From assembly GCA_047495785.1 (NCBI GenBank), contig JBLDXI010000031.1, forward strand, positions 992,001 through 1,056,000: a stretch of DNA of 64,000 bases, given 5' to 3'. The position numbers and the translations under genes are program-made. This DNA comes from Lepidodermella squamata. Its lineage: Eukaryota > Animalia > Gastrotricha. Shown here piece after piece: positions 5,601-63,165 of the stretch. Every line of letters begins with the position of its first letter. Positions within the stretch are counted from its first letter, which is position 1. The notes under the pieces were generated by a model. The model was not told where the DNA came from, searched no databases, and saw only the letters and a list, made by a program, of their open reading frames with translations.

Positions 5601-8600
5601 TTTTTCGGTGCATGAAATTGAATAGATTCTCATTATTTTTGCAAATATTATGTTAATACAATTTAAATTTTTTACCTTCTTCATCCTCGTCCTCGGCCGG
5701 CTCGGGTTGATTGAATAAACTGCCGGCTTGGAAGGTCGACAAGACAGTTCCAGTTCCAGCACCAGCAGCAGCATTACGCAGCCGACCTTCCCGCTGTTCC
5801 TTTTCCTTCTGAATGAATGTCTCCAGCTCTCGCGGCGTCATGTGATAGCCAGCCTCGTTGAACGGCAGCAAGAATCGAAGAACCAGCCGCTCGTGGAATT
5901 TGACATCATGCACATCGTACTTCTCATCGACAACCGTGCGGCTGAGCAGCGAAATGAAACATTCGGGCGAATTCGCGATAACAGCCGCCATAATCGGGGT
6001 CAGCCCATCCGCGCCTTTGACGTTTACTAAAGTGCCGACTTTGAGTAGGGTCCACACCAGCTGGTAGTGGCAACTTTCGACCGCTCGAATCAGGCAAGTC
6101 GACGCCGTTAAATCCGGGTATTTTTCGAAGTAATTGCCGCGTATGAATGTCCACTTAGAGGTAGCGGGCGATGCGGCATGTTTCATTGGCGTAAAATTGA
6201 CAACTGCATTGTTTTCGTCTTTCTCAGCCACGAACGGAAAGAGATCGCTAAAATTAAGGAAACAACAAATTATTTCGTAATAGGAAAATATTGTTATAAT
6301 TTATAACTAGTATCGCGGTGTGAATTCATGAGAATGTTTCTTCTAATCGAGTCACTGTCGAAGTTTTTGATCATTTTTGTATATTTCAAGGATATTTTAA
6401 GCTTACACGATGCGATCAGCAGCTGTTTGGTTGGCCAAATTCCAAAAAAGCGCATGAACAGGGCTGCGGCCGAAATTATCCGACGCTCTCTTCACATTCC
6501 CCTTCGATTCTTTGACGAAAAATTGCACGAGGACTTTGTGTTGGTTCAAACAGGCGTAGTGCAGCGGAATGCAGCCGTAGCCATCCTTCGCGTTGATGTC
6601 ACATCCAAGGCTCTGCAACTCTTTACCAACTTTCAGGACCTAAGAACCCATGAAGAATTAATAAATGAAAATAATAATATAAGTCAATATTGGCTGAGAA
6701 ATTGAATTCTTCGAATAAAAAAATAAGAAAAGTAAACACAATTTTCAATTTTAATCTGGAATATTAATTTTGATACAAATTAATTTACTAATTTATTTCA
6801 TTACCTCGTCAAATCGATGAAAATGAGAAAGAGTTAAAACGTACCAAATCTTCATTCTTAGCAGAATTGACAGTTGCTCCAAGAGCAAATAGATGAAATA
6901 GATTGCGGCCATTCGCGTCATTTTTCGCCTTGATGCGCTGCTTCAAATCCGATTTCAGCTTAGCCCGATCGATCAAACTCAACGCCAAATTGTATGTCGC
7001 AACGCCAAGGGACGAGGCGATCAAATCGAACAAAATCATCTGGTCTTTATCCATAAGAATATCGATCAACAACGACGTCAAACCCTGCCATTGCAGCTTG
7101 ATAACAGCTGAAAATAGGTCAATACGAGCCGGGTGGCCCAATTTAGCAGCTCGTCTAGCTAATCTCTCATTTTCCCATTCAATTGCTGGTTTATTCTCGA
7201 CGTCATCTGAACTGCTATCATCCTCGTAATTAGCGACGGTGACTTTGCTCAAATCAGGCTTCGACTGGACTAGGACTAACACGACTGATTTCCTCGCGTT
7301 TTTAATCGCCAGGGACAACGGGGTGTCACCATTTTTGTCTACGGCATCAATTGAAGCGCCACGGGATAGGAGTCGCAGGCAGCATATCGCAGCGCCACAA
7401 GCCGCGGCGTAGTGAAGCGGGGTGCGGCCAATCGCGTCTCGCACATCAACACTCTGCTTTGCGGTCAAAGTCGCTAGTAACATATTCGTCAAATCCACAG
7501 GGTCAGTTTGTTCCGTAATCATCGTAGGCTCGTCTTTCGTGTTTGCAACGGTCAAGTACAGCCAATGCAGCGCAGTCCTGCCTTTGTTATCAACCACTGA
7601 ATGGCAATTTGCGCCTCTGTAGACAAGGAATTGCTCGATGTGGTTAGCTGAATCAACGTGACGTTTATTCGTCCCGATAGCTAACATTAGCAACGAACGG
7701 CCGAGATTGTTCTGATAGTTCACGTTGAAATCACCCAGCGATTTCACGGCCAAGGTTTCCAAGCATTTCAATCGCTCATCAACGTTCAAATCACCGAAAG
7801 AGCAAATCAACCCGCCAATCGAATCGTTCGTTTCAGGGACTTTCGACTCCAAATTCGTGGCGTTTTCAATCAAAATTTTGACTATTTCGAGCTTTTTATT
7901 CACAGCCGCGAGCAGTAATGGTGTTAAAGTCGGCTCCTTTTTCGAGACAAGATTTAAATCTGCCCCTAATTTGAGCAGAAATTTCAGAACATCAGCCGAG
8001 CCTTTAGCTGCTGCGGTCAAGGCCGGCGTGTACCCCATCGAATCGTACAAATTCAAATCTGGGGTGAATTTCGTCAAGAAATCAAGAGCTGGCGTGGCGT
8101 ATTGAGGGAACAACAAGTTATGCGCAAAAGTTGTGTGGTTGTCGTCGTTGTTCGATGCATCTTCTTCGCTAGACTGGTCGTCACTTGAAACTGAATCGCT
8201 TCCTGCATTATCCTCCTCAACCTCCTCCACTTCCGGCGGCTCTTCATCAACAACCATACCGTCATTTGTCGACGTTACAGTCGATACACTCGAACGTCTC
8301 TTCGCGACTCGGTTCTCTAAATCGTAAACTGAATCCGCCTTAATGTCACTGCCGAAGTCAACAATTAACCGGCGCATGAATTCCGGACCCTTAGCTACCC
8401 AATCCTTGTATTCCTTGGTTTCTTTACCGTGACTGCACGAGCTGGACGCATAGGCAGAACTCGCGACTATCAGCGGCGTCTCGCCAGCTGCATTTCGAGC
8501 TTTCACCATCGCTCGAAGTGGATTCTTATCAATCTTCCGCTTCAGCTGGTCGAGAATCGGACTCTGGTCTCTGTGCATGCAATTTCTCGCCAAATTGTGG

Positions 8601-11600
8601 AGCGAATTCGACCGATCAGCCGGGTCAGGTTTCGTACTCAGCTTGCCGCCGTGATTGAGCAAAAATTCAACCAATCCAGAGTGGCTGTTTTCAATCGCGA
8701 CATTGACCGGGGTTCGATTACCCGCCGCCTCCGCGCTAGGCGAACAGCCGTGATCAACGAGTAATTTCGCCATATTAAGGCGAATTTTTTTATATTCTTC
8801 ATATTGGGCAGGCATTACTGAAGATTGAGTCGACGCCAAGAAATGAAGGGCATTGCACCCGTAAATGTCGACAACCGAACAATCAGCTTTCATTTGAACA
8901 ACCAAAAATTCGAGCTGGTCGTACAGGCGCTGGGTGACCGGAGCTTGGCATGTCAAAATAACCAGAGTTCGGCCGTTTTTATCCCGGAAATTCACATCAG
9001 CCCCGGGGCGTTTCAGCATCTCCCGGGTTATACCGATGTGGCCCTTGAGGAATGAAACCGCTAACGGGGTTACGTTCCAATCGTTTTCTACGCTAAGATC
9101 AGCCCCGGCTTCAACCAACAGGTTGAGACAGTCTAGCCAGCCGTAAGCCGCCGCGTAATGGGCCGCTCGATTGCCGGATGTATCAGCCGGATTCGGGTCG
9201 GCGCCTTTTCGCAGCAAATACGCAGTTATATGGGTGTGGCCATTCTTCACCGCGAAAATCAGGGCATTTCGATTTTTCCGGTCTTTCCGCTCAATCAAAG
9301 CCCCGCATTCTTCAATCAAGTATTTGACAATCTTGAAATGACCACGTTGGGATGCGACCATCAAGGCAGTTTTTTTCTCACTTCCCGCCGCGAAATCGAC
9401 ATCAGCCCCGGCTTTCGCGAGTAGCTTTACAATGTCGAGATGGCCGTTCCAAACTGCGTGATGCAAGGCGGTTTTCCCGTCTCGACCGGCTTTATTAATC
9501 GCGCAGGGGCCGTATTTTGAAATTATAGCCGTCGAAGCTAGGACGGGTTTCTTTTTGCCACCTTCGCCGTCTTCGTCTTCGTCTTCATTTTCTTCATCCT
9601 CGTCCTCGTCTTCTTCGGTTTCGTGCTCTTCTTCCCCGTCGCCCTTTTGCGCATCCTTGTCCTTGTCCTTCGCAGCCTGTTGAAGCAACAGCTCGACATT
9701 GGCAGTTCGACCAGTCATCGCCGCGTAAATCAGCGGTGTTTGCCCGTTCGAGTCGGGTTCAATGTAGGGAACAGCGGCTTGCAGTAGGACTTTCAACGGG
9801 CCAGTCGATTCGCAGACGGCAGCGAAGTGAATCGGACGCCGGCCGCGTTTATCTGTGATGTTGTAGTCGGGCGAAACGCCGAGGAATGTTTTCAGGAAAT
9901 TCGCGTTCGGGTTGATTGCGGCGCAGTGCAGCGGCGAGATGTTCATCGTTCGCATGGTTTTCTTAGTGACAGATGCAGCTCGGATATTTCCAAGTTTTTG
10001 AACGCTGTAAATGCAAACACAAAAATTAGACAATTTCAATAGAATGCTCGATTGTGAAAGTTCAACTCGAATTCAACGACTTCTTAACATGGAGGAATAG
10101 AAATTACGTTTATACCGTGGTATCAAAAAGTGCAAAAAGATGCTTTGGAAGAAAAGCGCCACGATCACGAATTTTGAAGGCCTAATTAATGCTACCCACA
10201 CCATCATCGCTCTGAGCAAACGGATGCTTCATCTAGGCGATAAGTAGGTGATAGAAGGTCGATTTAACAACGACCACGTTGAGCAATTATTCTCCCAGCT
10301 AGTGGTGGAAATCGTCAATCGTTATTCTCTATCATTCTAACATTTTCAGCACGATCAAATTATTCGGGTTTCATTACTATTCGATTGTGAAACATCGAAG
10401 CAGGCGACTACGAGCTCTAGTTTGAAGCATGCTAGTTCGAAGGTTAAGCTGAATACTGTCAAAATTTACAGAGCTTCTGGAAGGCTGGCTAGCGCGTTAC
10501 CCGAAGGTAGGTATCGCGAAGAGGCGAAGGTGCGTTCGAGCTCGATGATTCTTATGGTTCTCTCGCCATCGTGTACTCCTTTCCCAGTCCGTCATTCGAA
10601 GCCCGCTTCCAGAGTTAGTGGGAGCAAGCAGTTTAATCCAGCTTACTTCTAGATCCCCTAGATCCAGCTTTCTCGATACTACATGCTGGCATGGCACCCC
10701 AACTGAATTCCTACTTTCGATTGGTTTCAAGCAATCTGAAGTGTACCTGTGCGTTTTCATCGGTTTGAACGTCATTCTTATGATCTACTTTTATGACACG
10801 CCGATTCAAAATCTACGCGGTCTAGGTTCAGCTTTGTAACTGAACTATATGGATCTGAGTAGCTGCGCCTAGAGCACCAAATTGACCTTATTCTTTGACT
10901 GGAAAAAGACAATTAGCTCACTCGCCTCTTTTGCCAAGACTTCTCCTGCTTTTTCATTGGACGAACCACACCATTCAATATGATTTAAATAGAAAATTAA
11001 GAAACTGCTCTTTCGTGTTTTTTTACCTACTTTTCTTTATACCGTGGGTCTTCCTATTACCGGAACCAAATTAACAGTGAACGGAACCAAATTTGCTGTA
11101 GCGGAACCAAATTTTAGAATTTTCTAGTGGCTTGAAATCGCTTTTCGGATATTTATTGCATGCCAAAATTGGCCCCAATAATTCTAGAAAATTCACCAGT
11201 GAATTCAGCGCAACATTCTCTATAACACGCAGTGTTCAATTCAGAATTCATGCTTAGCCTAAAATTCTTAGAAATATTCAAAAAATGACTCTCGGCATAT
11301 TTCGAGTTTGGTTCCGCAAAAAGGAAATTTGGTTCCGCTACAGCATATTTGGTTCCGATACAGCAAATTTGGTTCCGCTCACTGTAAATTTGGTTCCGCT
11401 GAAAGATATAGATCCCTTATACCGTCAGCGGAGTTAACGGCCTGAGCGAACGCCTATTAGATTTAGTAATCATTCGGATGTTCGCCGGTCACCAAAATGA
11501 ATTTTTATTAATTATTTTGCTTTTATTATCTCAGAAAAAAATATTTTAATGTAAATTTGCGGAAAAGGAAATAGGGATTTGCCGCCGACCAAGACCCCCA

Positions 11601-13218
11601 AAATTGCCCAAAATTGCGCAACTTTGGGGGTCCTCAGGCATTTTTTGCTATTCGAGTCCATCCCAAGCCGACGCGTTAGGTTTGAGACCCCAAGTGTTTA
11701 ACCTCGTTACTCAGAATTTCATGCTCTACAAGGTGGTACCAATATTTTGCGGATATCCGAAAGTTGATTTTTTTAGTATCTTGGGTGGCTTTCTGATCAA
11801 TAGAATAGATTCAATACAAAAAAATTCAAACATTCATTAAAATGGTTTCGACTTGAAGTTTGACCTGAAATGATAATAATAACTTACTCAGTATGAGTGA
11901 GAGCTCCAACATGCAGGTAGTTGAACGTGTCAATAGCCGATCGTTTGGCAATTTCCATCAGCTTACCAGCAAGCTCCCAGTGGCCATGAATCATCACATA
12001 ATCGATTTTTTGAATCAGCTCGTTGAAAATATTCGACGAATTATACTGCCGGCCGTAATTCACCCGACCATAACGGTTGACTGACACAGATTGCTGTGAC
12101 TCGTCATCCTCTTCATCGTTACCATCCGGGTTGTTATAGACCTTGACAATCGACAATGGAATGCGATGCTGCACAACAAGTTCAGCCAAATCTAAATTGT
12201 GACCAGAACCATCATCGTCCTGGGTCAACGCATTCAGCCCCTCGCGACCCCCGCGGGACATCAAAACGTCACGGATAACTGGAATTCCGAGAGATCGGAA
12301 ATTGTACGTTCCAGACGAGACACTCTGCAACATTGGCTGTTCCAGGGCGGCTCGTTTTTTCGGAGTTGGCGAATTCAACTCTTTCGCCAGGGTTTTTATC
12401 ATTGGCAAATTTTGTTTGATCAACGCCAATTCTATGGCCGTTTCGTCGCAATCGACTGATCTCGGCACTCGCAATGACGGGCATTTATTCGCGTCGTTGA
12501 TAAGCGCCTGTACCTGCTTCACATCGCCATTCAACACGGCTTTAATCAACAATTTCGATGAAACAATGCCAGAAATCGTGTGGTTCTGCGGGCCAGGTAG
12601 AAACCCGTGGTCATTTTCCGGCAACAGTTTTATCGCTGGATTTTCTTTCAATTCGTCGTTTGGAATTACGTAATTTTTCGGTAATCGCTTTGGTTTTTTC
12701 GGTTTTTCCTTCTTCGCCCTTTTCATCGCTGGTTTCTTCTTCGATTCAGTCTTTCGTTTTCGCTGTTTAGGGCTCGGTGGTTGGCTCTCGGCGGTGTCTT
12801 CGCCGTCAGAAATTCCACTCGATTCTGAACTCTCCTCCAATTTATCACTCATGATTCTCCGTTTTTCTTTATTCGATAATTGAAATTTTTCCGAACCTAG
12901 GGGTGTTAAATCCACCTCGCCTATGATTGTTTTGACACTGATAGAATCTGCATAGTCGAGTTTGTAGCTGCCTGATTTTGTGACTTTGGTCAGCCATCGA
13001 ATGTCGAGATCTTCCGAGTCATCTGTAGACTCAAGCCACAGAACGCGGCGAGCCCTAGCGAGGTAGAATCCATCTGGATCGTCTTCGGTTTTGACGGCTA
13101 TGAAGACCCAGGCTTCGGAGTTGGCAGTTGTCTTGGGCGGGCGTTTCGGGGGTGAGGCTTCGTGGATGAAAAAATCAGGAGCGGCTCGTTTCCGCTCAGG
13201 CATTTTCGTGCGAACCAT
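2669..13218 (-). CDS. Ankyrin-WGR-PARP (PME-5/tankyrase-like) paralog 1, about 2509 aa. Exons 11888-13218, 6845-10004, 6407-6639, 5676-6247, 5272-5373, 2669-4800
   Basis: Many ankyrin repeats (TPLHYAA, TALHHAV), WGR motif FTRWGRIG, PARP regulatory helices, catalytic H-Y-E triad (LFHGT, GIYFAD, YAEYIV). All GT/AG junctions are phase-compatible; total 7530 nt. Confidence 0.92.
10140..10312 (+). mobile_element. P-element/THAP9-type transposase C-terminal relic
   Basis: FEGLINATHTIIALSKRMLHLGDK*VIEGRFNNDHVEQLFSQL, then frameshifted GGN; matches the Y-x-L-T-x-R-F-x-Q-D-x-L-E-x-x-F-x-x-x-R-x-x-G-G motif. Confidence 0.7.
11046..11416. mobile_element. MITE/foldback element with 9-bp TSD (Mutator-like)
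   Basis: Direct repeat TTATACCGT at 11037-11045 and 11417-11425. Inverted termini built of CGGAACCAAA subrepeats. Paralog 2 shows the empty site near 26475. Confidence 0.85.
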
Positions 13219-13667
13219 TGCGGTTGAGGTCCGTTATTTGAGGTATCTACAGAATATAAATAATTTAAATTCGTTTTTAAGCTGGGTTTCTCCCGAAAAT
13301 TCAACCAAAATATGACTCTTAGTAACCATCTTAACCAGGCATATTATTTTGATGCTAAAGCTTGCTAGGAATTCTGGGCGGAAGTAAGGCAAGAATTGAT
13401 GCCATCGGACCATCGAAATCCTCGAGTTTTATGCTCAACGAGATCAGGTATGTTTAAAACGAAATGTAATGGACTCAATTAAAAATGTCTCTTAGTATTC
13501 CACGCGGTATATTAATAAGTACTGTTTATTATGTAAAAACTTACCTCTTTCACTCTTGACTTGCTTGCACCAGTGACAGACAACAATTCATTAAATAGCT
13601 AACCTCAGTATTTTTGCATTAAAATCTAAAAAATATACAAGAAGAAATTAGTTAATTGCAAGTATAC

Positions 13668-14745
13668 CCCTACATAACAAATATACACTTCAAAATGTTG
13701 AAAAATTTCATCAGGTATATTCCCATATACCATGACATAAGAACGTCTACAAAATTGACGTTTTATGGAAAATTCAGTATTATCACCCAGTACATGTCTC
13801 AATTACTGCAATTTAGCCTGAATGTCACCGCTTTTCAATCTTAATATTATCAGCTCTCTTGTATGCTAAAAATAAAAGGTTTTCTGAAGAATTTTTCGAA
13901 AAAATATACACCTCAAAATAAAAAATATATAGTCTATCTTCAAAATATATACCACGCGAAGATGACATCTCGGATGACCCGGACAACAACTCGGATTGAT
14001 GTTGGGCTGCAACTCAGTCATGACGTATTTCCACTCTGTACAATGCGTGATACAAGACCTGACTGATTTTGCAGTCGATATATCGTCAGCGAAAGACTAC
14101 TCCGAAACACATCGAACTCGGACGGCCAAGCTTACATTCAACAAGAACGCCGGCAAGGGTCGCGTACGAATGTGCGACACTCTCAGACGCCACCATGTCG
14201 TCGACTTGGCACGCGAGGTCCTAGGCGGCACTTGGGCTCCATGGCTGTTGATTGCAACGCTTTGGTTCTTGCTTGTTTTAGCTACTGGGTCACGCGTTGC
14301 TAAAGAAATGTTGAGTCTGCAATGGGACGATGTCTCGTTGATCAAGTACGAAGAAGTTGTGAATGGCAAACTGGTGCAACAAGAATATCTTGAACACAGA
14401 ATTCGGTCTCGCAAGAACGATTCCGGAAAAAAAAGCCGTCAAAAAGTCGTCTCGCGGTCAAAGAAGGTACCACTCGCCTCTTTTTCGACGCAGACGATTC
14501 GACGATTCGACGCAGTAAGATGATGTCTACAATGTGATATTATATTGCTTAATTTGAGACCGAAATATAAATACAAGTGAATGGATATCAAGTTCATATC
14601 AAATGTTTCAATAATTTGGAAATTTTCATTTTTGAAATATAAAAACATGAAAAATCGGGACTGATAAAGTCAAAATTTAGTGAAAATATTTCCATATACC
14701 GTAACATAGCAATTTTTAAAATTAATATTTCGGTGACTGAGGAGT
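13668..14745 (+). mobile_element. 1.1-kb insertion with tyrosine-recombinase (DIRS/Crypton-like) fragment
   Basis: LATGSRVAKEMLSLQWDDV...RIRSRKND (about 14270-14420) is YR box I plus the catalytic Lys region. Absent from unit 1; flanked by imperfect direct repeat AGTATAC/AGAATAC. Confidence 0.7.
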
Positions 14746-15111: not shown

Positions 15112-18100
15112 TTAATTGCCAGTGGGCCAAAATTTCACCAAGTACTTGATGACAATTTGCTTCGAATCTTTGACAATGTACTCGGCGTAAGCGTTGTAGC
15201 TGCGACGGCCGCTGTTCGGCGCCTGCGCAACCCGACCACCGTACGGAAGTTTCACATCACCAGGCAAAATTCCGCAGTAACGCTGGTCGGGAACTTCACT
15301 GCTAGACGCGACGATCGTATTGCAGTCTTCAACAGTCGGCGAATATTGCCAATATTGCAAGCAAAATCCAGAGTTGTCATTCAATGCAGTTTTACCCAGG
15401 GCGACGTCGCAAATCAGCATGTATGACGGCTTGCTGCTATTATTATCGCAATAAGCAACACTTTTCGCAAAAGCATCCGCAAAATAAATGCCATCGCCGT
15501 GAATTTGCCCGGTATGTTGAATGCCCTCAGGGCTTGACTGCAGGCCAGCACTCAAGATTCCGAGTAGATTTTGCAATTTCGTCCCGTGGAACAGCAACTT
15601 TCGATTGCCCAATTTCAATTTCTGCTGCTGCTCGATTTCCTTCGGCCGATCCAGCTTATAAATTGCCTCGACAAAGCCCTTTGGATTCTTTTGGACCCAG
15701 CCCGCGGAAATGTACCGCAGAATATTTTGACCCTCATCCGATTGATGATCCAACAATTTCACGCCCATTCCGATTGAATTTACGATATAATCGCAAGGGT
15801 TGCGATTTTTCGCCTGTTCAGCCGCGAGAAGAAGTCGCGTCCCGGCTTGTAAATTCAGCATAACGTCAATCTTCTTCAATTCATTGTTAATTTCATGCGT
15901 TTGCGCCAGCGGGTAGATTTCACAGTACGCAAAACCAGGACGAGGCACAATGTGGAAATACTCTTCGGATAATCGAGCGATTTTTTCGTGAATTTCCAGC
16001 GCTGAACCCGCATTTTTATCGCGAACTTTGCTGTCACGAGTCGTCACGACTTCGTGCAGTTCCTTCAAAATTCGCTGGGCATCGTTCAACGCCTTCGGGG
16101 CGATCAGGCCAAATGGCGTCAAATACACGTTGCTAAGGCGCCGGAAAATCTCGCCGCTGTTGATGCCATTCAACGCCTCTCCAACAATACATTTCACGAG
16201 TTCGTACTCATTTTTCGGCAAACTCGTCGGTTTGTCTTCGAATTTCAAATCGATTTTCACCGACGTCAGCTGGCTGAATTTATCCGGCCTGTCCAGGGTG
16301 ACTAGACGGTATTTTCGGGGCAGGACCTTAAACCCGTCCTTCGCCATTTTTTTCCAGTCATTCCCAGATTTTTGCTTGAAAATTTTGCAAAACTCCATCT
16401 CGGCCTCGGTGAACAGCTTGAACGGCGTTTGTTGGTACATGCCCTCGGTACCAATTCGGCCCCAACGCGTGAAAACCACGTATAGCCCGGTGTTTTTCAT
16501 TTGAATCAACTGCAACTGGTAGAAATTGTACTCGGTCCAGCCGTTCGCGTGAAGGTCGACCTTAGTCATCAAGGCATCATACGGTCGTTTCGTATCCACT
16601 TCAACAACGATTTTGCTGAAGGCGTGCGATGCGAAATTTTTATTTGGAACTAGTTCCTGTTCCGGGTCTGGTTTCTCGCGCTTCCGCTTCTCATCGGCTA
16701 TCTTCTCCATTTTCGCCATCCAGTCCTCCGAAACTTGTTCAACCTCGTGTTCGAGGGCTCGGGTAGCCTTCGACACGCTCGACTGGCTTCGCCCGAATTT
16801 CGGATCTTCAACCAGCTCCTGTGCGGTTTTTCCGGATTTATTCTTCATCGAAACGAGTTTCGGTTCCATTTTCGCCAGGCAACGAGCCATGAAGCGACTT
16901 TCGATCGAATTGCGATACGGGCTGATTGCGACGGCGAGGTGGTAGGCCGTATTTCCTGACGAGTTCAACGCGGCAAGCAGGTCAACTTTTCGGTCGTTAG
17001 TCGTTTCTTCAATGTGGTCCAGGACTGAATAGTCGATCTCGCAGCTTCGATTCGTACGCAGCGGGAGTTGGATGTAGTTAAATGAGAAGTTTTTCGGCAG
17101 CAGGTAATGAAGTTTCGCATCCGGGGCTTTTTTTACCGAGGATTGTTTCTCGGTCAGCGCAGGCGGAGTAGCTTTTTTCGGGCGGTTCGAAACTTCGTCT
17201 TCATCTTCATCTCCAGCTCCACTATCGCTGTTGGATGAATTGTCATCATCTAAAGAAAGAAAAATACCATTAAAAAAGTCTTAAAGTTTGATTTTTGAGC
17301 TTGAAAGCTTGAACTGAAAAATTAGAAAGCCTTATCTATCTATTCACCATTTTGAACATGACTGCCAGCCTTGTTCAGTGAAGTTGGCTTTTTTGGGCGG
17401 TTCCATAGCGGTACCATTTCTTCATCATCATCGCTGCTGGATGAATCTACAAGGGAAATTATAGCTACAATATTTGTAACCCCACGGCAAAATTTAGAAA
17501 GCCCCATCTTGGAATATAACCGTCAATTTTCGAAAACTGCGGGTAATTTCATCCACTTTTGAGCACATGGCAAAGAATGAACTTATTTGTAAAATTCTAC
17601 CTAAAATGGAGACAACCGACAAAGTTAAATACCGTGTTGGTATACTAAAATGACTATTGGCATCGGAACATGTTGGGTCGACCTTAGCGTTTTCCTCTAG
17701 TTGGACATCGGGAATAATTTTGATCTCACAATCCTTTTCGCCGGGTTTTTTTTCACTATTTTCATGTTTCTATGTAGTTTTATTTTTCATATCTACCGCC
17801 ATATTCTTACTGTTGGTTTTCTTTTTTCGGCGACCAAGTTCCATCTAATTCGGATTTTACGGTTCATGAAATTGCATAAGTAGCAGCTCCTCATTAATTT
17901 TGGGAATATAAGGATGTTGTTGAATTTCAATTAAATTTTAATTTTTTTTACCTTCTTCATCCTCGTCTTCGGCTGGCTCCGGTTGATTGAATAAACTGCC
18001 GGCTTGGAAGGTCGACAAGACAGTTCCAGTTCCAGCACCAGCAGCAGCATTACGCAGCCGACCTTCCCGCTGTTCCTTTTCCTTCTGAATGAATGTCTCC

Positions 18101-21100
18101 AGCTCTCTCGGCGTCATATGATAGCCAGCCTCGTTGAATGGCAGCAAGAATCGCAGAACCAGCCGCTCGTGGAATTTGACATCATGCACATCGTACTTCT
18201 CATCGACAACCGTGCGGCTGAGCAGCGAAATGAAACATTCGGGCGAATTCGCGATAACAGCCGCCATAATCGGGGTCAGCCCATCCGCGCCCTTCACGTT
18301 GACCAAAGTGCCGACTTTGAGTAGGGTCCACACCAGTTGGTACTGGCAACTTTCGACCGCTCGAATCAGGCAAGTCGATGCCGTTGAATCCGGGTATTTT
18401 TCGAAGTAGTTGGCGCGTATGAATGTCCAGTTTGCGGTAGCGGGCGATGCAGCGTGCTTCATTGGCGCAAAATTGACAACCGCATTGTTTTCGTCTTTCT
18501 CAGCCACGAACGGAAAGAGTTCGCTAAAATTGAGAATAAAAAATTATTTCATCATAGCAAACTATTATCGCGGTCATGAGAATCTTTCTTCAACTCGAGT
18601 TTACAAGGCAAGAAAATCGATTTCTGTCGAACTTTTTTGATCATCTTTCGTTTGAGACCTATGCTTCACTTTCGTGCAGGCCTGCCTAAAACCATCTACA
18701 GTACTGGAAAACACAAACGGCGACATAGGATTTTCAATGACTTCGAGAAACTAGCGGATTTGGAACGCGACCATGGCAGGGTTCCAGTAGTAGGAGTGAC
18801 ATTCCAGATTCACGTGTCTGACGGTTCAAAAATCAAGCAGTACTCGAAGTCCACAGGAAATGTCCCATCGAGCTGGGAGCGTGCCGAAAAGTTGGTGGAT
18901 ATGAAAAAAGCTTTATGGAAAGTAGTTCGGCTATAAGCGAAGATATTCAACAGAGGTGTTTAGGAAATCGCTCATCGGGCTGACTTCAAACGACTGATCG
19001 ATCAGCAAACCCTTAAAATGGAGCGATTTTCGCTGTTTGCTGATGCCTTTACCTACTATTGTCCTACTATTTCAACGCTTCTAACGGTTCGCATTCGTTT
19101 TCACAAGGCCAGCTCGCCATGTCAATTTCGATGAGGTAAAAAGGACTAAAACCTACAAATTGGACGACACGAGGCTGGCAGTATCGTAGCTAGCGACAGC
19201 AAAGTTCATCTTCGCCGCGTCAGTAACGAAACGGCGAAAGCATCGCAAACTTGTAAAATGGTTGGCGGAAAATGGGTTCGACTCGGCCTTAAATGGCTGG
19301 TACGAGGGTTTTTCAGATTAGAGCGCGACAACAAATAGGTCAAGGTAAATGCAATACCGAAATCTGAGCATACATTCTATGCAACAGTTTCAGGAAACCA
19401 TTGCGAAAGACAATCTGCTGAGCTACTTATACAGGAATAATTCGATACCAGAAAGTCAGTTTGGATTCTTATCGCCTATTCATTCGAAAAATGCTTTGAA
19501 GGAGACTCGAATAGACTAATCAAATGGTTCAATGAGAAATGTTTGTCTGTAAACTCTAAAAAATGTGTTGTACTGAAAATGGGTAAGAAAGGCTTTCCAT
19601 TTCAATTCAACAACAGTGGTGTAGAAATTCAACTTTTCAACTCTATGGGAGCCCTCGGCATTGCTATAAACTAACATTCTCAGAACATTGCCAGTCTCTT
19701 CCAGCAAAATTTCATCGCATAAACGGCATTATCAGCAAATATGTCTTTTCTAAAAGCCCTCGCTATTGGACTTATGTCCAGCCGTATATTCGACTTTTTC
19801 GCCTTAAACTTCTCATTCAGGTTTCTACAAGACTTTTATGCGGCAATTTTCGGTGAACCAACTCTAGGAGTGTATGCAAATTTATATCTTTTAAAAATAA
19901 AAGCTTACATGATGCGATATGCAGCTGTTTGGTTGGTCAAATTCCAGAAAAGCGCATGAACAGGGCTGCGGCCGAAATTATCCGACGCTTTCTTCACATT
20001 CCCCTTCGACTCTTTGACGAAAAATTGCACGAGGACTTTGTGTTGGTTCAAACAGGCGTAGTGCAGCGGAATGCAGCCGTAGCTATCCTTCGCGCTGATG
20101 TCACAGCCAAGGCTCTGCAACTCTCTCCCGACTTTCAGAACCTAATAATCCATGAAAATAATAAAAATAATCAATCAGTCAATATTGGCAAAGATATCGA
20201 ATTAATCGATTAAAAATTCGATTGAATTATTCGATTCAAAAATACGAGAAATATCAATAATTTTGATTTAAATTTTGATCTATTTCATCTATTTGCTATT
20301 TGATTCAATTTTTATACTTAATATATTTATTTCATTTTCAAATTTTCAAATTTCAAATTTTAAGATTTTTAGGAAATTTCCCCAAGTAGTATCCCTCGTC
20401 AAATTGAAAAGGAGATGTGAAAGAGTTAAAACGTACCAAATCTTCATTCTTAGCCGAATTGACCGTTGCTCCAAGAGCAAATAGATGAAATAGATTGCGG
20501 CCATTCGCGTCATTTTTCGCCTTGATGCGCTGCTTCAAATCCGATTTCAGCTTAGCCCGATCGATCAAACTCAACGCCAAATTGTACGTCGCAACGCCAA
20601 GGGACGAGGCAATCAAATCGAACAGAACCATCTGATCTTTATCCATAAGAATATCGATCAACAACGACGTCAATCCCTGCCATTGCAGCTTGATAACAGC
20701 TGAAAATAGGTCAATACGAGCTGGGTGGCCCAATTTAGCAGCTCGCCTCGCTAATCTCTCATTTTCCCACTCAATAGCAGGTTTTTTCTCGACACCATCT
20801 GAACTGCTATCATCCTCGTAATTAGCGACAGTGACTTTGCTCAAATCAGGCTTTGACTGGACTAGGACTAACACAACCGATTTCCTCGCGTTTTTAATCG
20901 CCAGGGACAACGGGGTGTCACCATTTTTGTCTACGGCATCAATTGAAGCGCCACGGGATAGGAGTCGCAGGCAGCAAATCGCAGCGCCACAAGCCGCGGC
21001 GTAGTGAAGCGGGGTGCGGCCAATCGCGTCTCGCACATCGACACTCTGTTTCGCGGTCAAAGTCGCTAGCAACATATTCGTCAAATCAACAGGGTCAGTC

Positions 21101-24100
21101 TGCTCCGAAATCATCTTAGGCTCGTCTTTCGTGTTTGCAACGGTCAAGTACAGCCAATGCAGCGCAGTCCGCCCCTTGTTATCAACTACCGAATGGCAAT
21201 TTGCGCCTCGGAAAATCAGGAATTGCTCGATGTGATTAGCTGAATCAACGTGGCGTTTATTCGTTCCGATAGATAACATTAGCAACGAACGGCCGAGATT
21301 GTTCTGATAATTCACGTCGAACGCTCCCATCGAGTTCACGGCTAAAGCTTCGAGGCATTTCAAACGCTCATCAACGCTCAAATCACCGAGAGCGCAAATC
21401 AACCCGCCAATCGAATCGTTCGTTTCAGGGACTTTCGACTCCAAATTTATGGCGTTTTCAATCAAAATTTTGACAATTTCAAGCTTTTTATTCAAAGCCG
21501 CCAGTAATAGTGGCGTTAGAATTGGCGCCTTTTTCGAGCAAATATTGAAATCTGCCCCGAATCTAATAAGGAATTTCAGGACATCAGCCGACCCGTTAGC
21601 TGCAGCGGTGAAGGCTGACGTGTACCCGTTCGAATCGTACAAATTGAAATCTGGGGTGAATTTCGTCAAGAAATCAAGAGCTGGCGGCGCGTATCGAGGG
21701 AACAACAAGTTATGCGCAAACGTTGTGTGGTTGTCGTTATCGTTGCTCGACGCATCTTCTTCTTCGCTAGACTGGTCGTTGTCACTTGCAACTGCTTCGC
21801 TCCCTCCATCGTCCTCCTCAACCTCCTCTACCTCCTCTACCTCCGGCGGCTCTTCATCTACAACCATACCGTCAGCTGTCGACGTTACAGTCGATACACT
21901 CGACCGTCTCTTCGCGACTCGGTTCTCTAAATCGTAAACTGAATCCGCCTTAATGTCACTGCCGAAGTCCACAATTAAACGGCGCATAAATTCCGGACCC
22001 TTAGCTACCCAATCCTTGTATTCCTTGGTTTCTTTACCGTGACTGCACGAGGTGGACGCATAGGCAGAACTCGCGACTATCAGCGGCGTCTCGCCAGCTG
22101 CATTTCGAGCCTTCACCATCGCTCGAAGTGTATTCTTATCAATCTTCTTCTTCAGCTGGTCAAGAATCGCGCCCTGGTCTCTGTGCATGCAATTTTTCGC
22201 CAAAATGTGGAGCGAATTCGACCGATCAGCCGGGTCAGGTTTCGTACTTAACTTGCCGCCGTGATTCAGCAGGAATTCAACCAAGCCAGAGTGGCTATTT
22301 TCAATTGCGACATTGACCGGTGTTCGATTACTCGCCGCCTCCGCGCTGGGCGAGCAGCCGTGATCAACGAGCAATTTCGCCATATCAAGGCGGATTTTTT
22401 GATATTCTTCATACTGGGCGGCGGAACTCGAAGCTTGGGTCGACGCCAAGAAATGAAGGGCATTACACCCGTAAATGTCGACAACCGAACAATCAGCCTT
22501 CATTTGAACGACTAGAAATTCGAGTTGGTCGTACAAGCGCTGGGTGACCGGAGCTTGGCATGTCAAAATAACCAGAGTTCGGCCGTTTTTATCCCGGAAA
22601 TTAACATCAGCCCCGGGGCGTTTCAGCATCTCCCGGGTTATACCGATGTGGCCCTTGAGGAATGAAACCGCTAACGGGGTTACGTTCCAATCGTTTTCTA
22701 CGCTAAGATCAGCCCCGGCTGTAATCAACAGGTTGAGGCAGTCCAGCCAGCCGTAAGCCGCCGCGTAATGAGCCGCCCGATTCCCGGACGTATCAGCCGG
22801 GTTCGGGTCGGAGCCTTTCCGCAGCAAATACGCAGTTATATGGGTGTGGCCATTCTTCACCGCGAAAATCAACGCATTTCGACTTTTCCGGTCTTTCCGC
22901 TCAATCAGCGCCCCGCATTCTTCAATCAAGTATTTCACAATCTTGAAATGACCGCGTTGGGATGCGACCATCAAGGCAGTCTTTTTCTCACTTCCCGACG
23001 CGAAATCGACATCAGCCCCGGCTTTCGCGAGTAGCTTCACAATTTCGAAATGGCCGTTCCAAACTGCGTGATGTAAGGCGGTTTTCCCGTCTCGACCAGC
23101 TTTATTAATAGCGCAGGGGCCGTATTTTGAAATTATAGCCGTCGAAGCTAGGACGGGTTTCTTTTTGCCACCTTCCCCGTCTTCGTCTTCATCGTCTTCA
23201 AATTCTTCGTCATCGCTGTCCTCATCTTCTCTCGTCTTCTCATCGGATTCGTGCTCTTCTTCCCCGTCGTTCTTCTCCGCATCTTTATCCTTGTCCTTTG
23301 CAGCCTGTTGAAGCAGAAGGTCGACGTTGGCAGTTCGACCAGTCATCGCCGCGTAAATCAGCGGTGTTTGCCCGTTCGAGTCGGGTTCAATGTAGGGAAC
23401 ACCGGCTTGCAGTAGGACTTTCAACGGGCCAGTCGATTCGCAGACGGCAGCGAAGTGAATCGGACGCCGGCCGCGTTTATCTGTGATGTTGTAGTCGGGC
23501 GAAACGCCGAGGAATGTTTTCAGGAAATTCGCGTTCGGGTTGATTGCGGCGCAGTGCAGCGGCGAGATGTTCATCGTTCGCATGGTTTTCTTAGTGACAG
23601 ATGCAGCTCGGATATTTCCAAGTTTTTGTACGCTAAAAATGCAAACACAATTAGACAAAATCAATAGAATGCTCAATTGTGAGAGTTCAATGAATTCTTA
23701 CACAATTTTAGCCCTACTTAAAATGAAGTCAGATAGAGATTTTTACGCTGAAAGTGAAAACGAGGAGCCTATAATTTGGTAGCGGATTCTTTGATATAAC
23801 CGATGAAATAATTGCATTTTGCTCGTAAGACAGTTCAACGCCTTAATTTGGTGCATTGATTTTGAATTCGAATTTCTTTCGACTTGATTTGATATAAAAA
23901 TTGCTTATTCGCAGCGAAAAATAGGGAATGAATAATAATGAATTTCCTTTACTTATGATTATCAATTCACGCGTATCGTCCAAGTAGCCCCATCCCATCG
24001 ATCAAGCCTCGGCCCGTGAACGATGCAAGTCGCTGAAGGCTTACTTTGGCCCACCCTCGATCGCAAAGAAATATGCTTCCATGTGCCGCCTTTCTGCGAT

Positions 24101-27100
24101 TGCGATGGGGAGGGAAACCACCCTTGAAGCTATCATCCAGGAGTTTATGAATGCCGTCAAAGTTTACAGAGCTTCTGCTATTTCATTAAGACAGATATCG
24201 CAACTTCAAGAGGTAACAGGTGCGTTCAAGCTCGATGATTCTTTTGGTTCCCTCACCATCGCGAACTCAAACCCTGGTCCGCCCTACGAAGCCCGTCCCG
24301 AGAGCAAGAGGAAGCAAGAAAACAGCGATTTCCCCATCAAATCCTAGAATTCCCGAGTTTATTGAGAGAGTTAAACGCAGAAAGCTGTAGTTATTGGCTG
24401 AGGGTAATTCCAGCTTTCACTTTGCTTTCGATGAGATATTAAGATCATTCCCTGACTACGATTCCCTCATTTTTAAGCATCAAACAATCTGGTAAATGCT
24501 GGCATGACCTCATGACAAGTGGACAGTTGCGTTTTCATCGGTTACAACATCCGTCTTGTGATCTAAGTTTTAACAATCTTCCTATCGGAGGCAAACGCCG
24601 AATTTAAGCCTTCTTTGACAAATGTAAGAGTAATTAATTATACTAGATTAATAGAGGTATAAACAACAACAATCTCTCAATGCTTGTTATGACGCAGTCG
24701 AAAACCCGTGGCGGTGTCAACACCACTTTTCTACCGGATGGTGCCCCGTCAAACAAATTATCTGACTTGTTTCAGTCCGTCGAATTGCATCGGCTCTATG
24801 AACGCATCACTCAATCTGACAAAGGGATTCCTATGTTGATCAAAATGATGCCTAAAACGGATGAATATCTTCCCCGAGAAAAAGCCTCTGCTGCTCGGGT
24901 CATTTATTCATTGGACGTCGTTGCTCAGATGCTACAATCCAGCATCTTACACGGTCTTCTCTCCCGAGTGCCAACAATGAACCGTGTCAATTCAAAAGAC
25001 GCTGAAATGATTCTCGGAGTGAACAATGCTTCTATCGGCATGCTCAATACCTATGCAGCTGCAAAGGAGAAAGGATTTAACAACCGATCTACAGGCACAA
25101 GATATGTGCCATACCTTATTTACGGTTATGCTCCCTTTCCTTATGGCTTACAGCCAATTTGAATTACCTACGCGAGAGGAGTACAACATGATCAAGCGCA
25201 TAGCCTGTCTCTTTGCCAACCAGTACCTTATCTCACCCACTTGTATAGTCTGTCGACACGACCAACTGTGTTCAGGCTGTTTGGCTACTCACATAGCTAA
25301 CACCCTTCACGGGCTACTCACTGGTGATTATGCCGCTGCAAGGTTGGGTTTAATCCGCCTCATCGATTATATGAGTTTTTGTGGCGGAGACGACAACACT
25401 CTAATGAGCAAGAACTTCATAGTCCCGTCGGCCAAAGTGAAGAAAAAATATGGCGATAAAACGCCTCTTGAGCTTCTGCAACTGTTGTACAGAGAAGCTG
25501 GCGGTATTGCGCATCCGAAGAAAATGCGAATGACGGATTTGTCAATCGATGAACATGTTTCAATTTCCGATGGCGAGCTCCATTTCCAACCACCTGCTCA
25601 AATCTTTCCAGAAAAGCCAGATGATGAACCCGTTGTCTCCTTTGGTAAAATGACCATTTCAATATCTGTTGGTCAGTACCATTGGTCGAATCAACGGCTC
25701 GAATCCGTCTCTGGTGACTCTGCCATCCAAAAAGATGAGAGCAGCAAGAAACTTTATATATCTATTGGGAATGTCTCAAAGATCTTATTGTTGGCCTGCC
25801 AAGCCAAAGAACATCGTGTTGTTCAAACTTTTTGTTCAATTTCATCTGCTGTCCTAAGTGTTTACAAGTTCTTCTGGAGTATCGGCAATAGCTTCAACTC
25901 GGAAGTGACCGACCCAGAATTTTTGGATCAATTTGTCAAACTGCTCCGGACGAAGGATCGTATGGGTCAGCTACTTGTTGTCGTTTGCATTACCGTTTGT
26001 CTGCTTATCATCATGCGTTTATTCAAATTGCGTGGTGAAGTCTTCTACTGTCTATCGTTCATCATTATGTTGGCCGTTACACTGATTTTCAATGCTTGTT
26101 ATGACGTTTCCCAACTGTCACATTAATTATAATGATATCAATAGACAATAGACTATAAATACCAACCTACCATTGTAAGAAAGAGAGAGAGTTACTTTCC
26201 ATCCTAATTTAATATCAGAATAAAAGAAGTAGTGATATCCTAACCCGCTAGGAGTTTTGAACCCTCCCGAAGATCGTTACCAGTAGCGGGGAATCATCAT
26301 AAAACCCCCGTTACACAAAGGAGAAGTCGCCAATTTGTCTATTTTGAAAGGACTTGCTTGAGATGTGCTCCCCGATTTCGGTGAACCTTCCAATAAACCT
26401 TCCACTACGCACTAAACCATCTCTCTCATCAACATGATTTCATCTTCTTATTCGTGTTTATTTTACCACATTTTCTTTATACAATTAGCAGGCTTAACGC
26501 CTATTCGATCTAGTAATGCTAATTGTTTAGAATTATATGGTATTTTTGTGGATTTCAGATAAAGAGGGTAGAGTCTCTTAATGAAGCATAAATTAGCGGC
26601 CAAAATTACAGCCCATGATATTACAATAAATTTAAAACATCCATTTTTGAGGGAATAGATTTACTTGGCAAATACTTGGCAAAGTAGAACCCAAAATAAC
26701 TATTATTCAAAGACTTACTCTGTCTGAGTGAGAGCTCCAACATGCAGGTAGTTGAACGTATCAATAGCCGTTCGTTTTGCTTTGTTCATCAGTTTACCAG
26801 CAAGTTCCCAGTGGCCATGAATCATCACGTAGTCGATTTTCTGAAGCAACTCTTCGTAAATATCCGACGCATTACGCCGCCGGCCGTAATTCAACCGACC
26901 ATAACGGTTGACTGACACAGATGGCTCTTCCTCCTCATCCTCCTCATCATCACCATCCGCGTTGTTATAGACCTTGACAATCGATAGAGGAATGCGATGT
27001 TGCACAACCAGCTCAGCCAAATCAAATTCGTGATTTGAACCGTCATCGTCCTGGGTCAACGCATTCAACCCCTCGCGACCTCCGCGCGACATCAAAACGT

Positions 27101-28049
27101 CACGGATGACTGGAATTCCGAGAGATCGGAAATTGTACGTTCCAGACGAGACACTCTGCAACATTGGCTGTTCGAGGGCGGCTCGTTTTTTCGGAGTTGG
27201 CGAATTCAACTCTTTCGCCAGCAATTTTATCATAGGCAAATTTTGTTTGACCAACGCCAGTTCTATGGCCGTTTCGTCGCAATCCACCGATCTCGGCACT
27301 CGCAATGACGGGCATTTATTCACGTCGTTGATAAGCGCCTGCACCTGCTTCACATCGCCATTCAACACGGCTTTAATCAACAATTTCGATGAAACAATCC
27401 CAGAAATCGTGTGGTTCTGCTGGCCAGGTAGAAACCCGTGGTCATTTTCCGGCAGCAGTTTTATCGCTGGATTTTCTTTCAATTCGTCGTTTGGAATTAC
27501 GTAATTTTTCGGTAATCGCTTTGGTTTTTTCGGTTTTTCCTTCTTCGCCCTTTTCATCGCTGGTTTCTTCTTCGATTCAGTCTTTCGTTTTCGCTGTTTA
27601 GGGCTCGGTGGTTGGCTATCGGCGGTGTCTTCGCCGTCAGAAATTCCACTCGATTCTGAACTCTCCTCCAATTTATCACTCATGATTCTCCGTTTTTCTT
27701 TATTCGATAATTGAAATTTTTCCGAACCTAGGGGTGTTAAATCCACCTCGCCTATGATTGTTTTGACACTGATAGAATCTGCATAGTCGAGCTTGTAGCT
27801 GCCTGATTTTGTGACTTTGGTCAGCCATCGAATGCTGAGATCTTCCGTGTCATCTGTAGACTCGAGCCACAGAACGCGGCGAGCCCTAGCGAGGTAGAAT
27901 CCATCTGGATCGTCTTCGGTTTTGACGGCTATGAAGACCCAGGCTTCGGAGTTGGCAGTTGTCTTGGGCGGGCGTTTCGGTGGTGGGGCTTCGTGGATAA
28001 AAAAATCAGGAGCAGCTCGCTTCCGCTCGGGCATTTTCGTGCGAACCAT
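15112..28049 (-). CDS. Ankyrin-WGR-PARP paralog 2, about 2522 aa. Exons 26719-28049, 20437-23632, 19909-20141, 17952-18523, 17348-17446, 15112-17249
   Basis: Same exon structure and motifs as paralog 1 with H-Y-E intact; total 7569 nt in frame. Confidence 0.92.
19235..19800 (+). mobile_element. LINE (CR1/L2-like) reverse transcriptase relic in PARP2 intron
   Basis: KHRKLVKWLAENGFDSALNGWYEGF...VKVN and GDSNRLIKWFNEKCLSVNSKKCVVLKMG...ALGIAIN...FSEHC...TYVQPYI match LINE RT mid and thumb motifs, with stops and deletions. Confidence 0.75.
24647..26126 (+). other. Endogenous viral element: RNA-dependent RNA polymerase of an RNA virus (Pisuviricota-like), one frameshift near 25080
   Basis: Motif F KTDEYLPREKASAARVI (24854-24904), A DLQAQD (25086-25103), B SGCLATHIANT (25272-25304), C GDD (25386-25394), D LYREAGGIAHPKK, E VSFGK, in canonical order and spacing. 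Intronless, inside host intron 23633-26718. Confidence 0.85.
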
Positions 28050-28641
28050 TGCGGTTGAGGTCCGTTATTTGAGGTATCTACAAAAAATTCAATTCGTTAA
28101 TAAGCTGGTTTTCTCCCGAAAATTCAACCAAAATATGACACTTAGTAACCATCTCAACCAGGTTTATTATTTCGATGCTAAAGCTTTCTAGGAATACTGG
28201 GCGGAAGTAAGACATGAGTATCTACATCGAAATCCTCGAATCCATGAAACCGAATTTGGTTCTAAACATTTTGTAATGCTATCTTGAATGAGCTTAGAGG
28301 TGAAGCTTAAAAGGCTAGAAAAAATCGGGAAAGGCCCGCAACTTCGCACCTAAAAGGAAAAATAGCTAAAAAACCTTTTCAAAGGCAAAATTACTGGAAA
28401 TTTGAGTTCGTCAGGTAAATTAACTACCCTTAACAAAAGGTATCCCACGTGGCACTGTATTAAAATTATTGGTTACTATTAAAAAAATTACCTCTTTCAC
28501 TCTTGACTTGATTGCACCAGTGACAGACAAAAATTCATTAAATATCTAAAGAACGAAGAAGCGTTTAGAAATTGTACAACAAATTTCAAGCCAGTACGGA
28601 AAGAAGCCGATTAAAAAATTAAAATCTCAAAAATCTTAAAA

Positions 28642-29076
28642 TCAACAAATATCAATCAAACAATTATCACTTGCGACCTCGACCGCCGTTTTACACTCCT
28701 GTTCAGGCTCATCGTTCATTATTCGCTGCTTCTCTTTCACAGATAGCCGAAACAAATTGCGACCAAGCGACGTCAAATCAACCTCGCCAATCACCGTATC
28801 GGCGTGAATTTTATCCACATAGTCCAACTTATAGAGGCCACTATTTTGCTGCTTAGTCAACCACCTAATCGCAAATTCCCCATCAGAATATTCAGTCCGT
28901 CTAGCCCGAACTAAGTAGAAACCATCAGGGTCATCGTCAGTTTTGACGGCTAAATAAATCCAAGATGGCGAATTTATCGTGTATTTCGATTTGGTGGAAC
29001 GTTTTGATTTCAGAGAATTGTCAATATAAAGCTCAGGAGCTTTACGCTTTCGCTGGCCATGTTTAGGCTGAACCAT
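28642..29076 (-). CDS. Stand-alone paralog of the PARP N-terminal domain (144 aa)
   Basis: WIYLAVKTDDDPDGFYLVRARR...IRWLTK...YKLDYVDKIHADTVIGEVDLTSLG aligns with the PARP N-terminus. ATG at 29076. Confidence 0.75.
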   Translation of the reverse strand: MVQPKHGQRKRKAPELYIDNSLKSKRSTKSKYTINSPSWIYLAVKTDDDPDGFYLVRARRTEYSDGEFAIRWLTKQQNSGLYKLDYVDKIHADTVIGEVDLTSLGRNLFRLSVKEKQRIMNDEPEQECKTAVEVASDNCLIDIC

Positions 29077-29311
29077 TCGAGAAATAAATATAGGTGACAA
29101 AAATACTATTTACACAGCTATAATTTTCGAAATTGTTAGCGGACAGTGCTTCAGATCCCTTTGAGGTTTGAGGCGTTGAAAATGTTTAAAAATTATTTTA
29201 ATAAATCCTAAAATATTCAAATAAAGCTATTCATGCTTCAATTAATTCATTAAAAATCACAAAAAATTACAGCCTCTTCAATAATAAAAATAAAATAAGA
29301 TAAGATAAAAT

Positions 29312-62367: not shown

Positions 62368-62759
62368 ATTTGTGGTGAAAAAGTTCATTTTTGAAAAATG
62401 CTATTTTCCCGCTTTTGTCATTTTCCTGTAGTAAAGCTAAATTGGACCATATTCTTAGCAGGAAGTGATGTCAATACCGCCCCGTTCACAGATATTTTCA
62501 TGTTGGACTGGATAGAAACGTTTCTGAATAACGAAATGAGATCCAGATGGGTTTTGACATTTTTGGGGGACTGCACCAAATTTGCAAAGCTGCAAGTTTC
62601 GGGTTGTGCAATTGTTGATTTTTGTGGAAATTGGTGACATGGATGAATAGTGGACAACCTCTCGACTAAATCTGAACCCACCAACAAGAAAAATGATTGC
62701 CACAAGTCACATCGGATACAAAATGGCATTTTTCAAAAATGAACTTTTTCACCATAAAT
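62368..62759. mobile_element. MITE with about 40-bp TIRs
   Basis: ATTTGTGGTGAAAAAGTTCATTTTTGAAAAATGCTATTTT (62368-62407) is inverted at 62720-62759 with 2 mismatches. Confidence 0.8.
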
Positions 62760-62954: not shown

Positions 62955-63165
62955 AAAATGGTAAGGAAAAATCCGGCGAAAAGGAGTTTGAAATCAAAAT
63001 TATACCCGATTTTCAACTAGTGTCTTTTGAAAAAGATGAATGGCGCATGATTGTTAACTCGATTGAAAACTATGAATTTTTCGGAAAAAGCAAGATCTTC
63101 AACTGTGGGGGTGGGTAAGAATTTCTCTTTGCCTGCCTTCGCCCTCTTCAAAACCGGAAACGGTA
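62955..63165. repeat. Dispersed repeat family member
   Basis: 62957-63020 matches the reverse complement of 17697-17760; 63104-63160 resembles 52851-52905. Confidence 0.6.

Follow-up and report, generated by a model that had tools for sequence, protein, structure and literature searches.

A truncated, probably viral RdRp inside an LTR-like repeat in a PARP intron of the gastrotrich Lepidodermella squamata

Results and discussion

We analysed a 64,000-nucleotide stretch of the Lepidodermella squamata genome (GenBank assembly GCA_047495785.1, contig JBLDXI010000031.1, positions 992,001 to 1,056,000 of the forward strand), hereafter the window, in which position 1 is the first letter. Two tandem ankyrin-WGR-PARP genes lie on its minus strand at 2669-13233 (copy 1) and 15112-28064 (copy 2), with an ankyrin-WGR-regulatory-catalytic layout according to Pfam. 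The features of the locus are collected in Table 1. A third, more diverged start of a PARP first exon was seen at 28642-29109 (-), and a 181-aa frame between the two copies, at 13978-14523 (+), looks by eye like a tyrosine-recombinase fragment and has no Pfam match. The Aquarius protein has 56-59% identity to most of the named animal proteins among the matches listed, 50% to the single nematode protein there and 74% to one unnamed protein; in a quick tree of 29 rows, 28 of them taken from at least 120 matches, it stands on a long branch.

Table 1. Features of the PARP locus and of the insert in the copy 2 intron
Feature	Position	Strand	Basis
Matching intron of PARP copy 1, lacking both LTR and viral insert	10005..11887	-	Sequence comparison
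PARP copy 2, WGR / regulatory / catalytic frame, H-Y-E motifs present	15115..17280	-	Pfam, sequence
PARP copy 2, ankyrin-repeat exon, open frame	20356..23632	-	Open frame, Pfam
Host intron of PARP copy 2, GT...AG, phase 2	23633..26718	-	Open frames; paralogue intron likewise phase 2
CAAA, left copy of 4-bp target-site duplication	24619..24622	.	Sequence
Solo-LTR-like element, 1693 bp with insert, 281 bp without; ends TGTAA...TTACA	24623..26315	+	Contig bounds and sequence
18-nt direct repeat, left copy	24677..24694	+	Exact repeat search
Putative viral RdRp fragment, two frames with one frameshift, 1394 nt	24695..26088	+	Bounded by 18-nt repeats and empty-form joints
Motif F-like KTDEYLPREK..RVI, first frame	24854..24904	+	Sequence; P0001 alignment starts at motif F arginine
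Motif A DLQAQD (DxxxxD), second frame	25086..25103	+	Sequence and P0001 alignment
Motif B SGCLATHIANT (SGxxxTxxxNT)	25272..25304	+	Sequence and P0001 alignment
Motif C GDD	25386..25394	+	Sequence and P0001 alignment
18-nt direct repeat, right copy; single copy in empty LTR forms	26089..26106	+	Joint 24676->26089, 18 letters fit both sides
TATAAA of LTR, presumed function, downstream of viral piece	26154..26159	+	Sequence
AATAAA, presumed LTR polyadenylation signal	26219..26224	+	Sequence
PARP copy 2, exon upstream of intron	26719..28049	-	Open frame

The first-pass annotation had described a near-intact viral RdRp in the minus-strand PARP intron 23633-26718, and had found none in the equivalent intron of the other PARP copy. 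The location is borne out by the GT/AG ends and phase 2 of the intron. Likewise, neither an RdRp nor an LTR match was found in the copy 1 intron at 10005-11887, where neither half of the LTR element described below has a match. Intron sequence to the left of this element scored 67.5 against the paralogue intron (shuffle maximum 50.5), and sequence to its right scored 68 (shuffle maximum 69) with a blastn match of 39 nt (82%, E 2e-4). Two blocks are common to both copies (24148-24318 / 10450-10628, 70%; 24517-24570 / 10739-10792, 78%), the remainder of the introns being mostly unalignable. An Rfam search of 23600-26800 returned no match. The copy 1 intron carries an inverted-repeat, MITE-like element of its own at 11061-11114 and 11325-11398.

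Two overlapping plus-strand ORFs make up the RdRp-like region (24647-25162, 171 aa; 25023-26126, 367 aa). As had been claimed, they carry RdRp motifs with one frameshift and no stops: motifs F, A, B and C can be read directly, D is alignable with a library protein described below (P0001) and E was assigned only by eye, while a single frame switch falls in the ORF overlap just ahead of motif A and the two used frames are stop-free. Motifs A, B and C follow the canonical order and spacing of a viral palm-domain RdRp (Orthornavirae). The span originally given, 24647..26126, encloses a real RdRp region, but both its edges are LTR sequence: the first approximately 16 and last approximately 12 codons belong to the LTR and thus the viral part is 24695-26088. 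Calling it near-intact was an overstatement, as what remains is a truncated, frameshifted core. The end of the second ORF, at approximately 25950-26088 (+), is strongly hydrophobic (19-residue mean up to 2.6) and may come from a membrane anchor or from an adjacent viral gene.

Three tests of RdRp identity (Pfam, ESM Atlas and a protein library search), each weak on its own, are concordant when taken together. The profile check proposed earlier succeeded in part: RdRP_1 was the sole Pfam family matched by the second ORF, but at E 0.043 it fell below the cutoff, and the first ORF had no family match. The ESM Atlas yielded 30 matches in 10 rows (0.91-0.93), all 10 rows consisting of 96-100% viral clusters and 9 of them including an RdRp family; the top match had 142 of 256 features in common, with the two frames not joined. 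Among 1,835,955,588 representative proteins searched, a single match reached E<=0.001: P0001 (E 5.2e-4), itself an RdRp by Pfam (E 2.4e-23). P0001 comes from a 1684-nt JGI/IMG contig and is picobirna-like by PDB match (A1 profile against 5i61, E 8.5e-19). Its alignment to the fragment covers 171 columns at 30% identity from motif F to motif C, taking in both frames in order with A, B and C in register. Each frame alone scored above 200 of 200 shuffles against P0001, a protein preselected as the best of the library. Judged by sequence, the remnant in the PARP intron is a real viral RdRp from an unclassified RNA virus, and the earlier reading as a viral palm RdRp instead of a retro RT agrees with the sole Pfam family, the viral Atlas rows and a P0001 alignment across both frames. 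A retro-RT is ruled out by GDD and SG..T..NT in place of YxDD and by all Atlas rows being viral.

Placement among known viruses is another matter. A grouping with Picobirnaviridae or Durnavirales would stand on one match at E 5e-4, the top one out of 1.84 billion proteins, and the motif F1 wording of this picobirnavirus-like RdRp is unlike that of the fragment, giving no basis for a family assignment. Searches for virus relatives returned none at E<=1 among proteins of 644-2000 aa and none at E<=0.1 among proteins of 270-861 aa. A motif-pattern search had zero matches in viral contigs and 50 in metagenome contigs, none of them a relative, and each frame alone found no meaningful match in the PDB. 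A single-sequence fold of the second ORF gave a low-confidence model (pLDDT 41, pTM 0.26). Among seven other single RdRp-like loci, the best reached 8.3 bits, with the second ORF only. The motif-B pattern of the window retrieved many 10-11 kb flavivirus-like contigs, which together with the motif wording had raised a flavivirid reading. This found no support, with profile scores of -0.8 to -5.2 bits that were matched by 4 to 76 of 200 shuffles; the test profiles were pesti- or orthoflavivirus-like (11, 68 and 23 sequences) and did not include hepaci-like and large-genome flavi-like groups. The suggestion of an undescribed virus lineage is in keeping with a single distant match among 1.84 billion proteins.

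That the RdRp was inserted within the PARP intron proved right, but the insertion is not bare: it is carried inside an LTR-like repeat that the first-pass annotation had missed. The bounds of this repeat were taken from contigs of two public runs with contigs on the locus, the DNA-like X1 and the RNA-like X2; a run X3 had no contig placed there. On the left, contigs in both X1 and X2 have loose ends before 24623, and on the right a contig starts at 26286, 30 letters inside the end, with a depth drop after 26315. Depth is raised on both LTR flanks; with the repeat taken to end at 26315, the extra depth is 363 versus 381. Both runs contain empty forms that skip 1408-1438 nt. The flanking sequence is thus a dispersed repeat, given these joints, the loose ends and the raised flank depth. 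The contig-set bounds, which are independent of motifs, coincide with the 5-bp inverted ends and the 4-bp duplication (chance approximately 4e-6). The exact 18-nt repeat compares with a maximum of 15 nt in 300 shuffles of the intron.

The element at 24623-26315 has TG...CA-type ends, short inverted termini, a 4-bp target-site duplication, TATA followed by a poly(A) signal and copies with other flanks, and by these marks it would be a solo LTR. The duplication length suggests a Ty3/gypsy type, a tentative label based on the ends and the 4-bp duplication. Neither internal gag/pol nor a second LTR was found at the locus, and no further LTR copy was found in the window. A Ginger-type DNA transposon was also considered and rejected; such elements have long terminal inverted repeats of tens of bp, and the inverted ends here measure only 5 bp. 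The viral piece has the same orientation as the LTR that carries it, and this LTR runs opposite to the PARP gene. Since the TATA box is downstream of the viral piece, the insert sits in the presumed U3. Elsewhere in the window, an integrase zinc-binding (H2C2) fragment was seen at 58268-58663 (-) (E 7e-17), with no LTR match nearby.

X1 behaves as DNA since intron and exons are both covered. Its depth over the viral piece (120.5 and 122.9) is like that of the intron (111.9 and 111.5), which makes the viral piece genomic and single-locus; X1 may be the window's own sample, and its depth therefore checks the assembly and is not independent support. The right virus-LTR joint is spanned by a contig at depth 109 and the right LTR-intron joint by another. 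Both contigs have 30 letters on the short side, one letter under the tool's junction rule of 31. X1 falls to about half depth (68-69) over 25057-25328 and approximately 25926-25988, where the second allele may differ or may have lost its contigs to filtering. In X2, no contig covers 24828-25991, although contigs cannot evidence silence. An assembly chimera or contaminating viral sequence could find some encouragement in the two stretches of halved depth, in the possible identity of X1 with the source sample and in left junctions that none of the contigs listed bridges. We give this explanation almost no credence in view of the 4-bp and 18-nt duplications, both of them exact, a depth equal to intron level in a run with intron coverage, the contig over the right virus-LTR joint and colinearity with the paralogue's intron. 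The description as a non-retroviral EVE fits the intron-level depth, the LTR with its 18-nt duplications, the viral Atlas rows and the RdRp library match.

How the viral piece came to lie within an LTR can be explained in two ways. Probably, it was captured by RT template switching into U3 with an 18-nt backward return, followed by integration, solo-LTR formation and one frameshift. In such a scheme, an RT (probably gypsy-type) copying U3 would jump to viral RNA, copy 1394 nt and return to the LTR template 18 nt behind its exit point, leaving the 18-nt duplication. An integrase would then insert the LTR-virus chimera, creating the CAAA duplication, LTR-LTR recombination would remove the element interior to leave a solo LTR, and one frameshift would arise in the viral piece. 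Capture is supported by the viral piece itself, its 18-nt edge duplication, the LTR ends and target-site duplication, empty forms elsewhere and a paralogue without the insert. The 18-nt duplication could, however, also be left by an insertion, target-primed or through repair, into a solo LTR already in place. Staggered-cut duplications are established for LINE insertions. An exact 18-nt duplication would therefore suit a staggered cut in a solo LTR that was there first and later received viral cDNA by LINE-type target-primed RT or break repair, in which case the target-site duplication would be the 18-nt repeat. A single-locus chimeric LTR, as indicated by depth, and related copies that begin at other points without alignment to the 5' part of the LTR also favour such a sequence of events. 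We consider it rather unlikely, as a 281-bp repeat in a 3-kb intron is a small chance target, links between EVEs and LTR elements are well documented (PMC6797480; 10.1101/2020.04.02.022509, as far as the accessible text goes) and, as a mild point, neither junction has a poly(A) tract. Template-switch capture and later insertion both make the viral piece a passenger, and the present data fit either.

Whichever route applies, the insert is likely a recent neutral passenger. With the TATA box downstream of the viral piece, no sense transcription by the solo LTR is expected, and the sole expected transcript would be the spliced-out antisense intron. The viral frames run for 1365 nt without a stop and 4.27% of substitutions would create one, which bounds neutral drift at approximately 5% or less (95% level, uniform rate assumed). 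The two PARP copies differ by dS 0.14-0.25 and dN 0.04-0.06, and from the comparison of the drift bound with this dS the insertion postdates the PARP duplication. On such sequence arithmetic, the insertion is likely young, with under 5% drift.

A related copy was found in X1, where a 1181-nt contig (depth 57) aligns to 24711-25080 with 70 of 370 nt differing (81% identical) and carries 658 upstream letters without a match to the locus. The 34 differences listed comprise 27 third-position and 7 first-position changes, and 30 of the 32 changed codons among them are synonymous. Mostly synonymous changes do not fit neutral genomic decay, so the related copy is likely a separate capture of another strain, its divergence being more likely a product of virus replication than of change within the host genome. 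The presence of at least one related copy in the DNA-like run points to the capture of more than one virus strain. Loose ends in X1 at 24698 and 24786 probably mark a short third copy, with a similarity of at least 90% and, by subtraction, a depth of approximately 75, if, as it seems, both lie in one contig. The excess of synonymous codons (30 versus 2 non-synonymous among listed differences) and the long open frames might also come from a domesticated protein family that diverged in the host under purifying selection, with the present copy recently broken. This is very unlikely: the present copy has a frameshift ahead of motif A and lies antisense in an intron with no upstream sense promoter, the copies differ in their upstream sequence, and the other copies stand at approximately half depth.

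It had further been proposed that the insert couples a PARP gene to sequence-specific immunity, being retained because the PARP pre-mRNA supplies antisense viral RNA for piRNA or siRNA production against the cognate virus. With this geometry, any transcription of copy 2 would indeed yield antisense viral RNA, the insert appears by depth to be on both alleles, related viral strains seem to have been circulating in the host and, according to the accessible part of PMC6797480, antisense EVE piRNAs restrict virus in Aedes. We nevertheless regard the proposal as distinctly improbable and its main expectations as unsupported. The antisense orientation needs no selection, since the viral piece runs in the sense of the LTR, which itself lies opposite to the gene, one of two possible ways round. 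All eight listed PARP pieces in X2 fit copy 1, with 23 of 24 diagnostic letters, and the X2 spliced joint 23632->26725 has inserted letters that are those of copy 1; X2 bears another organism label and contigs may drop variants, making the copy 1 fit a lack of support and not a disproof. Known antiviral PARPs have a macrodomain or ZAP layout, which the ankyrin-WGR-regulatory-catalytic layout of the host gene does not resemble. In the available parts of the EVE literature, active EVEs elsewhere lie in piRNA clusters; the present insert is in a gene-dense region. The wider idea, that LTR retrotransposons repeatedly archive an undescribed virus lineage in U3 and that an intronic antisense fragment feeds antiviral small RNAs outside piRNA clusters, is improbable as well. 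If small RNAs were found, they would represent EVE immunity from an ordinary intron.

Retrotransposon capture of viral RNA is a known route, and it is the layout inside one LTR that is unusual and well preserved. According to the accessible text of PMC5177903, a nodavirus-like RdRp (eBxnv-1) lies between two LTRs of a Bel/Pao element in Bursaphelenchus xylophilus, and copy-choice capture was proposed. Like the present fragment, it is described there as a truncated, recent RNA-virus RdRp that kept its catalytic motifs and was carried by an LTR element. It differs in being located between two LTRs with pol remnants and in being transcribed, clearly nodaviral and in one open frame, whereas the present fragment lies within a single LTR in an intron, carries a frameshift and is unclassified. 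The same text refers to Geuking 2009 and Tanne and Sela 2005; in the latter, as cited there, just the element's terminal repeats were left, and this case may be close to ours.

In Aedes aegypti, virus-LTR hybrids include a CFAV EVE with Ty3/gypsy flanks in a piRNA cluster (PMC6797480), and a bioRxiv study ties EVEs to gypsy and Pao Bel elements (10.1101/2020.04.02.022509); in the accessible parts, the recombination is reported as not driven by homology. These nrEVEs resemble the present case in joining a viral fragment to LTR-retrotransposon sequence. As described in those parts, they lie, unlike ours, for the most part in piRNA clusters, give rise to piRNAs and correspond to known viruses, and none among them is an insert inside a solo LTR whose junctions are duplicated, as seen here. 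Further insect EVE surveys exist (PMC12810003, PMC12922265; seen in part). At title and abstract level, our literature search found neither a viral insert within a single solo LTR nor an EVE in a PARP intron; supplementary EVE tables and subscription papers could hold cases of either.

Virus-LTR junctions, 18-nt duplication and integrase signature are all intact, leaving an unusually clean footprint of germline entry, and with junctions and duplications preserved, models of capture can be tested on this insert. The fragment is also the sole trace found of a virus lineage for which 1.84 billion representative proteins include no close relative, and more than one strain of this lineage appears to be present in the host genome. 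Short dispersed and inverted repeats also occur in the window (17697-17762 versus 62955-63020; 62368-62407 versus 62720-62759).
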